From Candidatus Binataceae bacterium (GTDB lineage: Bacteria > Desulfobacterota > Binatia > Binatales > Binataceae): a stretch of 64,000 bases of DNA. This document shows, one piece after another, positions 23,357 to 26,147 of this stretch (positions within the stretch are counted from its first letter, which is position 1; every line of letters begins with the position of its first letter). The notes beneath the pieces are model-generated. The model saw only the letters and a list, made by a program, of their open reading frames with translations, had not been told where the DNA came from and did no database searches. The position numbers and the translations under genes were made by a program. The DNA lies in the NCBI GenBank assembly GCA_036489375.1, contig DASXFX010000116.1:23364-87363 (forward strand), read 5' to 3'.

Positions 23357-23441
23357 GACGGAGCGGCAGGCCTCGCGATAGTCACTCGCGGATGCGAGTG
23401 ACTATATAGGTGGGGCGGCCCGCCGATCGCAACGAATACGG

Positions 23442-23475: not shown

Positions 23476-23631
23476 ATTCAATGGCGCTCAAGCGGTATTG
23501 AATGATCCGAGCCGCGTTGAAGCGCTCGGGCAAAGATCGCTCAAGTACCAGCTACTTCGCAGGCGCGTATGAGTCCTCGGTCGCGGAGGCCGACACGGTC
23601 GCGGACGAACGTGGGGGCGCGATCTAGGAGA

Positions 23632-23778
23632 TCAAAGCTGTAAGCGTCCCGAGAGCAACATTATGACGAGGATGATCAGCACGATTCCGCCGATGCCTAT
23701 TCCGCCGCGCGGGCCATAGGCGTAGTAACCGCCGCCACCACCAAAGAGTAAGAGCAAAATCAAAATGATAAGTAGCAT
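23632..23778 (-). CDS. Small hydrophobic protein, DUF3309-like (48 aa, below the ORF-track cutoff)
   Basis: My translation is MLLIILILLLLFGGGGGYYAYGPRGGIGIGGIVLIILVIMLLSGRLQL. The ATG is preceded by GGAGGCGCTC. Confidence 0.5.
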   Translation of the reverse strand: MLLIILILLLLFGGGGGYYAYGPRGGIGIGGIVLIILVIMLLSGRLQL

Positions 23779-23829
23779 GAGCGCCTCCGAGCCAGTTCTA
23801 CCAAGTTAGAGCGATTGCGGTTTTGTTTA

Positions 23830-24240
23830 TCAGGCGGGGGCCGTGGTCAACTCATTGTGCACGCCTTTGACACCGTCGGTTTGACCGGTGACCTGTTCCG
23901 CGGTCGTTGAAGCCTCGGAGGACGGCACGGTGCCGGTGAGGGTGACCACGCCTGCGACTGTTTCGACGTGAATATCGCCGGCGTTGGTAACCTTATTGCC
24001 ATGCAAATTGCTTTTGACTTTGGCGGTAATGACGGTATCGGAGACCGCGGTGGCAGTGCCCTCATAAACGTCCTTGACGGCATGGCCTGCTGACGTCGCG
24101 GAGTTGCCGGCAGAGTCTCCCGCCTGGCTCATCGACTGACTAGCCGATCCGGTATTGTCCTGGGCGAAGGCCGGTATCGCGAAGGCCATTCCGAGCGCGA
24201 GCGCCGGTACGACAATTTTCAATCCAAACGCATTCTTCAT
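23830..24240 (-). CDS. BON-domain (OsmY-like) periplasmic protein
   Basis: Signal peptide 'ALALGMAFAIPAFAQD'. 'ITAKVKSNLHGN...IHVETVAGVVTLTGTVPS...VKGVHNEL' is the BON pattern. Confidence 0.8.
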   Translation of the reverse strand: MKNAFGLKIVVPALALGMAFAIPAFAQDNTGSASQSMSQAGDSAGNSATSAGHAVKDVYEGTATAVSDTVITAKVKSNLHGNKVTNAGDIHVETVAGVVTLTGTVPSSEASTTAEQVTGQTDGVKGVHNELTTAPA

Positions 24241-24542
24241 AACAACCTCTTTGCGAGCCGATTAAGGGTCTCGCTGTCTATCTGAGAATTGGTCAGTCAA
24301 TTAGCCACTGCCTATCAATGATTGGCAGCGAGCCCGGTGACTGGCCTGCGGTAGCATGCGCCTGAAAGTAGTATTGCGCCTGAATGCCAATATAGCGCTT
24401 CGAAAGGAATGGCAGCGGGTTTGAGGCATTACGATCAACCGATCTGGTGCTGCAAAGCACACTATGATCCGAATAGAGCATTACTTACTTTGTATCCGCA
24501 TGTCCGCGGTGCGCATGATGGCTGTGAGGAACCAAGTCGATT

Positions 24543-24902
24543 ATGTTCAAGCCGTTGATCAGGGGCGCGCTGTTGGCCGCCGCGCTGATCGGCACACAGG
24601 GATGCTTCTACTCCAGTCCACCTGCCCGGTACGGTGCCGGTCCGTACGGGTCGCATACTATTTGCGATACCAACGGCAATAACTGCCTGGCGTGCGATGG
24701 CGATAATAATAATTGTCAGAGCATCGGGACGCAGAACGGGGCTCAATATGGGGGGCAGTATGGGCCGCAATATGGAACACAGTATGGATCGGGCAGCCAC
24801 ACGGTCTGCAATGATCATGGCTGTCAGAACTGCGATTCGAGTAACAACAATTGCCAACCATTGGCGGGCAGTTCGGGCAGTTCGTGGGGCTTCTTTTTCT
24901 AG
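24543..24902 (+). CDS. Small Cys/Asn/Gly-rich lipoprotein with a C-terminal SSWGFFF
   Basis: Lipobox 'LIGTQGC'. Internal duplication 'GSHTICDTNGNNCLACDGDNNNCQ' / 'GSHTVCNDHGCQNCDSSNNNCQ', 'QYG' repeats, and it ends 'SSWGFFF*'. Confidence 0.6.
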   Translation: MFKPLIRGALLAAALIGTQGCFYSSPPARYGAGPYGSHTICDTNGNNCLACDGDNNNCQSIGTQNGAQYGGQYGPQYGTQYGSGSHTVCNDHGCQNCDSSNNNCQPLAGSSGSSWGFFF

Positions 24903-25010
24903 CGGCGGGCGCGGGTGACGTGGTGGATTGTGAGTAATGAATCGTGCGCGGCGGTTTGCGAGCGACGAATTCCCGTCGATAAAATGAAGTAAGAGGAAGC
25001 AGCTACGCCT

Positions 25011-25181
25011 ATGATCAAATCGATAATGCTCGCGGCAATCGCTTGTGCGATGTTCGGCATGCAAGCGTGTTTTTCGTCCAGCACGACGGAGCAAGCCGCC
25101 GCGCCTGCCGCGTGCGATGCGCAGGGCAATAACTGTCAGGTATCGACGACGAAGAAGAGTTCGTGGGGTTTTTTCTTTTAA
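25011..25181 (+). CDS. Small lipoprotein paralog (56 aa, below the ORF-track cutoff) with a C-terminal SSWGFFF
   Basis: My translation is MIKSIMLAAIACAMFGMQACFSSSTTEQAAAPAACDAQGNNCQVSTTKKSSWGFFF. An AAGAGGAAG element lies upstream of the ATG. It shares 'CD..GNNCQ' and the tail with the upstream gene. Confidence 0.5.
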   Translation: MIKSIMLAAIACAMFGMQACFSSSTTEQAAAPAACDAQGNNCQVSTTKKSSWGFFF

Positions 25182-25600
25182 CGCGCCGTGGGGCGCCGGT
25201 GGGGCTTTTGGCCGGGTGGCGGGTGGGGCGATTGAACGATTGTCTATCGTCAATCTAATGTAGCCGGTGTGCGAACGATAAAGATCGCAGGTATTTCTAT
25301 CATCAAGCGACCACGTCAAGTTCAGTTTGCCGCATAATTCGCCGCCGGGACCAGGCCTCAAGAATGGGGTCGGCACGCCGGTGGTTGCTGGCATTTAAAG
25401 ACCGCGCCCCGGAAATCTCGGCGGCGGGGCTCCCGTTTCCTTTCTACAAGAAAGACAATCGCGCAAGGTTCCAAGTCGCCAGTATAGAGGGCTCGACCGA
25501 CCGTGGCGCGTGCCGAACGTTGTCGCAGGTCGGAGAAGTACGTTCGGGACGTATCGAATGGGACCCCGAAGACGCCTGGATTTTGAGGCTTGACAAAGCA

Positions 25601-25635
25601 TCAACAGTATCGTTGAGTATCAATCAGATCGTTGA
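25601..25635 (+). promoter_or_regulatory. Two tandem 16-bp imperfect palindromes upstream of the ArsR-family gene (candidate operators)
   Basis: TCAACagtatcGTTGA (25601-25616) and TCAATcagatcGTTGA (25620-25635). A TTGACA hexamer sits at 25590-25595. Confidence 0.4.
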
Positions 25636-25682
25636 CTGTCAGACGGCAGTACGACGGGCGGCGAGGCGAGTGCTGCTTTCTT

Positions 25683-26147
25683 ATGCGATGGGGGAATGCA
25701 CCGGTGAATATTGCGGAGGAGAGGGGAGCGCTGGAGGTAATTCCAGGCGAGGAAGACGCGGAGACGCTCGACCGCGTGTTCTCCGCATTGGCGGACCCGG
25801 TACGGCGAAATATCTTGAGGCGCCTGGACGGCGAAGACCTGCTGGTTTCCGAATTGGCCAAGCCCTTTCGGATATCGCTGCAAGCGGTGTCGCGGCATAT
25901 CCAGGTGCTGGTGCGAGCGGGCCTGGTGATGCAGGAGCGGACGGGCCGCATCAGCCGGTGCCGGCTCGACGCCGGGCCGATTTACCAGGCAGCGGTGTGG
26001 GTCAATCGATATAGCAAGTATTGGCGCGAACAGTTCAACTTCATGGCGGTGTGGCTGGACGAAATCGATCGCGAGCGTGCGGTCAGCGCGAAAAAGAGCA
26101 AGTCGTCAAAGCGATTGCGAGGGCGCAGTCACCAATCGAAAAACTGA
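25683..26147 (+). CDS. ArsR/SmtB-family transcriptional regulator
   Basis: 'LADPVRRNILRRLDGEDLLVSELAKPFRISLQAVSRHIQVLVRAGLV' is a winged HTH. The start is uncertain: ATG 25683, GTG 25704, or the track's TTG at 25632. Confidence 0.8.
   Translation: MRWGNAPVNIAEERGALEVIPGEEDAETLDRVFSALADPVRRNILRRLDGEDLLVSELAKPFRISLQAVSRHIQVLVRAGLVMQERTGRISRCRLDAGPIYQAAVWVNRYSKYWREQFNFMAVWLDEIDRERAVSAKKSKSSKRLRGRSHQSKN

Follow-up and report, generated by a model that had tools for sequence, protein, structure and literature searches.

The 64,000-nucleotide window analyzed here, i.e., positions 23,364 to 87,363 of contig DASXFX010000116.1 from a Candidatus Binataceae bacterium (assembly GCA_036489375.1), carries two adjacent short open reading frames (ORFs), gene 1 and gene 2, on its + strand. 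Very probably both are real genes of one lipoprotein family whose members share both polypeptide ends, mostly have a conserved upstream unit and recurrently lie beside stress-type genes. Judged by sequence comparison, this family is undescribed, restricted to one lineage and modular.

The two genes and their family

We located the following features on the two genes; dN/dS is the ratio of nonsynonymous to synonymous substitution rates.

24543..24902, + strand: gene 1, prolipoprotein of 119 aa, two-module form (ORF; homologues at 45-97% identity; dN/dS 0.10-0.19 versus relatives)
24543..24605, + strand: gene 1 signal peptide and lipobox IGTQG-C21, then Phe22 (G17, Q19, C21 and F22 invariant in alignments)
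24651..24719, + strand: module A, SHTICDTNGNNCLACDGDNNNCQ, residues S37-Q59, with Cys41, 48, 51 and 58
24720..24794, + strand: QYG-repeat linker between the modules, low complexity (length varies among relatives)
24795..24857, + strand: module B, SHTVCNDHGCQNCDSSNNNCQ, residues S85-Q105, with Cys89, 94, 97 and 104 (all four Cys invariant)
24879..24902, + strand: gene 1 C-terminal tail SSWGFFF and stop codon (S113, W115, G116, F117 and F119 invariant)
24992-24999, + strand: Shine-Dalgarno-like element of gene 2, AGAGGAAG
25011..25181, + strand: gene 2, prolipoprotein of 56 aa, minimal form (ORF; 13 homologue clusters; dN/dS 0.05-0.18)

Gene 1 reads MFKPLIRGALLAAALIGTQG-C21-FY..., followed by two four-Cys modules and the end SSWGFFF. 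Gene 2 reads MIKSIMLAAIACAMFGMQA-C20-FSS..., with the lipobox FGMQA-C20, a single C35-x6-C42 loop (CDAQGNNC) and the tail S50-F56. An earlier sequence-only reading of this DNA had described the same anatomy, i.e., 119 residues with a lipobox, two Cys modules, QYG repeats and the SSWGFFF end for gene 1, and for gene 2, 108 nt past the gene 1 stop, 56 residues with its own Shine-Dalgarno-like element, lipobox, CDAQGNNC loop and SSWGFFF end. Sequence and ORF list agree with this description for both genes.

Pairwise dN/dS in both + frames was 0.05-0.3 wherever synonymous divergence was measurable. A search of 5.8 billion proteins returned 8 homologue clusters for gene 1 and 13 for gene 2; the latter all encode 55-58 residues and end invariantly in SSWGFFF. 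By this substitution pattern, both ORFs are real genes under purifying selection. The sequence-only reading had named an antisense ORF of 310 aa (24462..25394) as the finding that would overturn it, should that ORF be the real gene. This ORF is open in near-identical relatives only, spans the intergenic spacer and is contradicted by the purifying selection in the + frames. On these grounds it is to be regarded as a shadow ORF of GC-rich DNA, i.e., an artefact.

All members follow one layout: a signal peptide with the lipobox G-x-Q-[GA]-C-F, a Ser/Pro/Gln/Tyr linker, a half, a single or a double four-Cys module, and the end [KR]-S-x-W-G-F-Φ-F. Across the members from the metagenome and profile searches the lipobox takes the form G-[LM]-Q-[AG]-C-F. 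The Cys part consists of a single C-x6-C loop as in gene 2, of one four-Cys module, or of two as in gene 1, and these forms make up a continuum; their C-x4-6-C loops number one to four and contain many Asn, Asp and Gly residues. Of the 64 tail-bearing members, 60 have 2, 4 or 8 Cys after the lipobox Cys. We hence describe genes 1 and 2 as the long and the minimal form of a single modular family with 2, 4 or 8 Cys, rather than as the two divergent paralogues of the sequence-only reading. Its suggestion of a possible new family, on the other hand, is borne out. A metagenome scan yielded 32 family loci and an exhaustive profile search 39 clusters at E<=0.001, and the tail is C-terminal throughout the tail-bearing homologues, which is what the sequence-only reading had proposed to check.

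Scans of both proteins against Pfam and NCBIfam at E<=10 returned noise only (Zn_clus, E 0.24; DUF6215, E 0.087). For neither gene was there a Pfam match below E 0.08 or an NCBIfam match, and entericidin (PF08085) and other named small-lipoprotein families were not matched. A profile search of the PDB gave no relative of either protein, and a literature search found the WGFFF motif in no relevant paper.

In module A, with the Cys spacing C-x6-C-x2-C-x6-C, all four Cys as well as D42, G45 and N47 are invariant in the alignments. Module B is spaced C-x4-C-x2-C-x6-C; most homologues have two residues more in the first loop. The near-identical relatives P0002 and L037 lack eight linker residues, some other members have nearly no linker, and P0001 lacks the SSG ahead of the tail. 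The differences in QYG-repeat number look like repeat slippage in a little-constrained region.

A survey of 61 relatives placed the family in the window's genus alone, where 6 of the 13 genomes carry it. Across 401 sampled genomes of the phylum, it was confined to the window's genome and one other genus of Binataceae. It is also present in soil metagenomes, and its occurrence within Binataceae is patchy. Long and short forms stand in tandem in the window, in L037 and in genome G010 (locus L073), and in G004 both are found on separate contigs. At locus L039, a decayed remnant of the long form (316-582, + strand; ending ...VCDDHWLPGFDSRNNNCQSLVRGAGSSWRFFF before its stop) lies directly upstream of an intact short form. 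This indicates that a tandem pair was once present there and that its long copy is being lost.

Lipobox and C-terminal tail

Both proteins match PROSITE rule PS51257, applied as a regular expression ([LIVMFWSTAG](2)-[LIVMFYSTAGCQ]-[AGS]-C, with the Cys at residues 15-35), in line with the lipoboxes assigned by the sequence-only reading and with the signal peptidase II check that it had advised. Basic N-terminal residues are present (K3 and R7 in gene 1, K3 in gene 2), and the lipid-bearing Cys is invariant in the alignments. Signal peptidase II is encoded in the genome (Peptidase_A8, E 8e-42, contig C103). Lgt and LspA would process the two precursors to lipoproteins of 99 and 37 residues, respectively.

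The lipobox is of an unusual type. Gln occupies position -2 in 57 and Phe position +2 in 56 of the 64 tail-bearing members. Among lipobox ORFs of the whole genome, a crude survey counted Gln at -2 in 9/197 and Phe at +2 in 8/197; this survey, like the set of exported proteins and the neighbouring ORFs used below, was drawn up by simple heuristics. As both residues are frequent in the family and rare among the genome's lipobox ORFs, we regard them as a feature of the family and not as a habit of the lineage. A further small lipoprotein of the genus (L074 7846-8118, - strand; genome G006, contig C23) has a MQACF lipobox as in the family, joined to an unrelated mature part that is rich in Gly, Tyr, Trp and Asn, contains no Cys and ends in DDDDD. 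This arrangement suggests that the signal peptide and lipobox have been reused within the genus as a cassette.

The tail was present in 64 of 75 unique lipobox-bearing sequences and always formed the true C-terminus among these, so the seven-residue aromatic C-terminus that the sequence-only reading had seen in two proteins holds for their homologues. WGFFF is the most frequent version (43/64), followed by WGFIF, WGFLF, WGFWW, WAFLW, WWFLW and others; the 21 tails other than WGFFF all end in an aromatic or hydrophobic residue. The eleven exceptions comprise six apparently cut or frameshifted gene calls, one protein with residues beyond an intact tail, three variant aromatic ends (WGFW, FFGIF and LFVW) and one tailless member.

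At the DNA level, the tails of gene 1 and gene 2 differ by four synonymous changes and by their stop codon, which shows that their identity is kept at the protein level. Across the family there are 28 distinct DNA versions of the tail, with all four Gly codons, both Phe codons and all three stop codons in use. In the 3.97-Mb assembly, only these two ORFs end in W-[GA]-F-x-[FYW] before the stop. By codon usage and counts, the shared tail of genes 1 and 2 is neither a chance likeness nor a recent DNA copy.

Short conserved C-terminal motifs that fix the attachment of an exported protein are known from PEP-CTERM, GlyGly-CTERM and MYXO-CTERM proteins and from the C-terminal Lys of Braun lipoprotein. 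The CTERM tags, however, are cleaved and have a transmembrane helix as well as a basic cluster, whereas the motif described here comprises the last five to seven residues with nothing after them. The NCBIfam CTERM models matched neither protein.

Upstream unit and gene neighbourhoods

Three elements in the window bear on the expression of the pair.

24447..24460, no strand: perfect palindrome GTGCT-GCAA-AGCAC, 83 nt ahead of the ATG of gene 1, putative operator of a dimeric regulator
24488..24519, + strand: promoter-like block CTTTGTATCCGC-N-GTGCGCATGAT, conserved across members sharing only ~50% protein identity
24956..24985, + strand: candidate σ70-like promoter of gene 2, TTGCGA-18-TAAAAT (single promoter-like match in 24200-25700; conserved in the close relative L037)

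The promoter-like block contains a -35-like TTGTAT (24490-24495), an 18-nt spacer and a -10-like CATGAT (24514-24519). In the family, the elements follow each other as TCTGGTGCT-N4-AGCAC, a spacer of 19-31 nt, CTTTGTATCCGC, ~12 nt, GGCGCGCAT[GC]AT and a ribosome-binding site. Of the 31 family genes inspected, at least 16 have this unit conserved upstream. Besides the window, it was seen ahead of family genes at L004-L006, L012-L014, L046, L049-L054, L062, L063, L065, L068, L069, L072 and L073; gene 2 of the window has no palindrome unit. The palindrome half-sites are fixed, the central 4 nt vary, and the distance from palindrome to promoter box varies by ~11 nt, roughly one helical turn. Fixed half-sites, the absence of covariation and of a consensus RNA fold, and a spacer shift by a helical turn agree with an operator, bound by a dimeric activator, that precedes a weak promoter. 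We therefore consider the palindrome a putative activator operator and the boxes a putative weak promoter; the hexamers lie below the threshold of a simple promoter scan, so that the promoter assignment is inferred. At L013, L070 and L071, Crp/Fnr-type regulators are encoded close to the family gene.

Two other readings of this region were rejected. For a structured 5' RNA leader, RNAalifold gave no consensus fold, and two hand-drawn hairpins showed no covariation beyond shuffled controls; an Rfam scan of 23500-26000 returned nothing. A σ54 promoter at TGGTGC-N-AGCA is disfavoured because its GG-to-GC spacing lacks one base and the sequence forms a perfect palindrome.

A profile of the upstream unit, searched against the window's own genome, recovered the gene 1 site only (E 1.6e-19). 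The next-best site, upstream of an LTXXQ gene, was weak (E 0.14), and no regulon was demonstrated by this search. Here the exact palindrome GTGCTGCGGAGCAC occurs 194 nt upstream of the LTXXQ gene, which encodes a periplasmic protein of Spy/CpxP/ZraP type (contig C95, 48926-49666). This gene may share its regulation with the family, but the similarity of its upstream region to the unit is weak.

Family members recurrently adjoin osmotic and general-stress genes. In the window, the following two genes lie on the far side of the palindrome.

23830..24240, - strand: gene for a BON-domain (OsmY-like) exported protein, divergent from gene 1 (Pfam BON, E 5e-19)
23632..23778, - strand: gene of 48 codons for a Gly/Tyr-rich two-helix membrane protein, downstream of the BON gene (ORF; near-identical 46-aa ORF in L065)

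The divergent pair of BON and lipoprotein genes is found at six loci (window, L037, L062, L065, L067 and L073). The membrane protein at 23632..23778 had no Pfam match at E<=0.01. A tiny membrane protein of DUF3309 type occurs in the window, L065 and L004-type loci, and a Pfam DUF3309 gene adjoins the L004-L006 homologues. CsbD lies directly upstream on the same strand at L007/L008, L057/L059 and L071, and a gene for a membrane protein of the Phage_holin_3_6 (holin-X) family is among the recurrent neighbours.

Other contexts are confined to parts of the family. Giant GH94 proteins with a glucoamylase domain are encoded on the same strand beside the family gene at L053 (6712-12210), L055 (1350-3440) and L069 (3-7778), with the domain set of cyclic β-1,2-glucan synthases, and a GH15/trehalase-like gene lies beside members at L051 and L068. 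In a subclade (L009/L010/L011, L013, L014 and L063) the family gene is part of an operon (at ~2500-7300 in L009) whose first gene is LolA-like (TP_0789), and it lies there behind the second of two FtsX/MacB permease genes and ahead of the gene for the ABC ATPase; an LTXXQ gene follows the operon in L009 and L013. At L066, the adjacency to the ABC ATPase gene alone remains.

An ArsR gene adjoins the family in the window, L036, L037 and L045 only, and in neither G010 nor the other loci. We rejected a functional link, as the ArsR-DUF899-SRPBCC synteny is limited to close relatives and is not found beside the pair in the congeneric G010. The sequence-only reading, which had noted the ArsR gene downstream and refrained from making it a regulator of the pair, was right in its caution.

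Proposed role and alternatives

Tentatively, and with somewhat less than even confidence for the statement as a whole including its mechanism, we propose that the family consists of stress-linked envelope lipoproteins with disulfide-closed Asn/Asp loops, in which the tail acts as a second hydrophobic anchor or as a docking peptide. Expression would be controlled by a dimeric regulator that binds the palindrome and would belong to a response of the envelope to osmotic or desiccation stress. The mature proteins would be largely unstructured and have no hydrophobic core. AlphaFold2 with family alignments gave a predicted local distance difference test score (pLDDT) of 48 for gene 1, with short low-confidence hairpins or strands in the modules, and of 56 for gene 2, with the mature part as coil, so neither protein is predicted with a confident fold. 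The mature proteins have no hydrophobic residues from which a core could form; their only hydrophobic elements are the N-terminus with lipid, Cys and Phe-Tyr, and the C-terminal Trp-Gly-Phe-Phe-Phe, and we therefore interpret the tail as a second hydrophobic attachment point. It would either wedge into the membrane interface or dock into a hydrophobic groove of a partner, and in either mode it would hold the polar loops at the membrane surface.

Each Cys pair would close one small polar loop by a disulfide. Crudely predicted exported proteins of the genome favour even Cys counts (122:87 versus 1107:1258; Fisher p 0.0009). Moreover, the genome has genes for DsbA-like proteins (C69:4593-5069 and C68:24037-24489) that contain CPYC, begin with a hydrophobic segment and are probably exported or membrane-anchored. 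The even-Cys bias and these DsbA-like proteins favour disulfide-closed loops, with the Cys probably paired consecutively as the minimal C-x6-C form suggests.

Known small lipoproteins offer partial parallels. The entericidin tandem pair EcnA/EcnB, OsmB and OsmE are very small stress lipoproteins, sometimes in tandem as here, and lie among osmotically or stationary-phase-induced genes such as osmY (BON). The neighbours BON, CsbD and DUF3309 of the present family resemble this context. There is, however, no sequence relationship, and entericidins, OsmB and OsmE have neither Cys loops nor a conserved aromatic C-terminus. RcsF and NlpE, small sensor lipoproteins of the envelope, likewise combine paired Cys with a disordered linker and report on envelope stress or act in it, but they have folded domains, in contrast to the family with its lack of a confident fold and of homology to either. 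The short Asp/Asn/Gly loops bracketed by Cys recall the calcium loops of thrombospondin type-3 repeats. Neither these nor Excalibur calcium-binding repeats (signature of both, D-x-D-x-D-G) were matched in Pfam at E<=10 or found as a PDB relative, and spacing and consensus differ.

Several points speak against the proposed role. No neighbour is universal across the family loci, so that the stress link is one of association across mixed contexts only. The hexamers of the putative promoter are weak as well. With its five residues and a charged carboxylate at the end, the tail is by itself a weak membrane anchor. Furthermore, the near-invariant Trp, Gly and Phe resemble recognition by a specific protein more than generic hydrophobicity. 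Finally, no DsbB or VKOR turned up in the 13 genomes that represent the genus, and the Cys might accordingly be reduced and bind metal.

The near-invariance of W-G-F, which points to protein recognition, is also what favours an alternative that we consider unlikely though worth keeping in view, i.e., that the tail mimics the C-terminal strand of an outer membrane protein. It would then dock by β-augmentation on BamA or a barrel, or on the PDZ domains of DegS, DegP or Prc, and the lipoprotein would serve as a regulator, a decoy or a substrate when the outer membrane is built or envelope stress is signalled. It is known that C-termini of the type Y-x-F activate DegS. A free C-terminal Phe and aromatic or hydrophobic residues at -3 and -5 are common to such ends, to the outer membrane protein β-signal and to the family tail. 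The β-signal consensus is polar-x-G-x-x-[aromatic/hydrophobic]-x-[aromatic/hydrophobic]; aromatic or hydrophobic residues at -1, -3 and -5 are the minimal triad recognized by BamA, and β-signal peptides inhibit the β-barrel assembly machinery (BAM) (PMC10945584). The tail fits the end of this consensus: Phe stands at both -1 and -3 in gene 1, in gene 2 and in the 43 of 64 tails that read WGFFF. Two barrel proteins of the window's genome, the two termini that this comparison within the genome comprises, end in ...VKLDF and ...VVYAF. In addition, an extracytoplasmic function (ECF) sigma factor and anti-sigma gene pair adjoins the L007/L008 member. On the other hand, the tail has its Gly at -4 and not at -6, its position -2 is hydrophobic as well, and the mature proteins are lipoproteins of 37-99 residues with no predicted barrel whose last strand the tail could form. 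Also, no gene for a PDZ protease, BamA or another barrel recurs in the family neighbourhoods.

The Cys (and His) modules might instead bind metal, with the tail secondary. The proteins, tethered to the membrane in the periplasm, would then buffer or chaperone metals much as metallothioneins do. The spacing C-x6-C-x2-C-x6-C holds a CxxC that is preceded by a mostly conserved His, and it weakly matches the fungal Zn2Cys6 cluster (the Zn_clus hit at E 0.24). The LTXXQ genes described above, of Spy/ZraP type, in the L009-type operon and 194 nt downstream of a palindrome in the window's genome, may be counted for it, as may the missing DsbB and VKOR. We judge this reading rather improbable: the His is exchanged for Arg or Gln in many members, loop 1 varies between four and six residues, and the minimal form has two Cys only. 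The even-Cys bias of exported proteins and the CPYC DsbA-like proteins likewise argue against it. A metallothionein of SmtA type with its ArsR/SmtB repressor is no model either, since Pfam and NCBIfam gave no metallothionein match and the ArsR adjacency is not conserved.

Still less probable appears a role as cargo or accessory of a dedicated ABC system of Lol/MacB type, with the tail or the Q-x-C-F lipobox as an extraction, sorting or export signal. It draws on the unusual, near-invariant Gln at -2 and Phe at +2 and on the position of the gene within the operons of LolA-like, FtsX/MacB and ABC ATPase genes in the subclade mentioned, together with the ATPase adjacency in L066. Yet most family loci have no such operon, and a tblastn search of the window's genome with the permeases and the LolA-like protein of L009 gave no match at E<=1e-10, although both lipoprotein genes are kept there. 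The family gene of the ABC operons comes with a palindrome and promoter unit of its own and thus resembles a cassette that was inserted there. We give hardly any credence to the remaining view that the ORFs encode precursors of bacteriocin type or of ribosomally synthesized and post-translationally modified peptides (RiPPs), or that they are no genes at all and the antisense ORF is real. They are short and Cys-rich and have leader-like N-termini, and the L007 member has a B12 radical-SAM gene at a distance of 5.6 kb. But the N-terminus is a canonical signal peptide with lipobox, and clustering of the neighbours at 34 loci showed no recurrent maturase, protease, exporter or modifying enzyme. 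The dN/dS values well below 1 in the + frames and the restriction of the open antisense frame to near-identical relatives oppose the second variant.

A more far-reaching idea, for which we see only a small chance, is that S-x-W-G-F-Φ-F-COOH and the Q-x-C-F lipobox together form a new, two-ended lipoprotein address. A specific machine of the envelope would recognize the C-terminal peptide and so place the Binataceae stress lipoproteins, expose them or time their destruction; candidates are a PDZ protease, a transporter of Lol/MacB type, and BamA or a barrel partner.

Most small proteins from soil phyla without cultures have no annotation; gene 2 falls below the usual ORF length cut-offs, and to our knowledge Binatia has no cultured member. 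The family described here is testable by its lipobox variant, its countable Cys-loop modules, its near-invariant seven-residue C-terminal tag and its putative dedicated operator and promoter. If the tail is a hydrophobic wedge only, the family represents one more group of lineage-specific stress lipoproteins. If the tail is a recognition signal, it would be a new kind of C-terminal address in lipoprotein biology and would provide a handle on envelope stress responses in Binatia.

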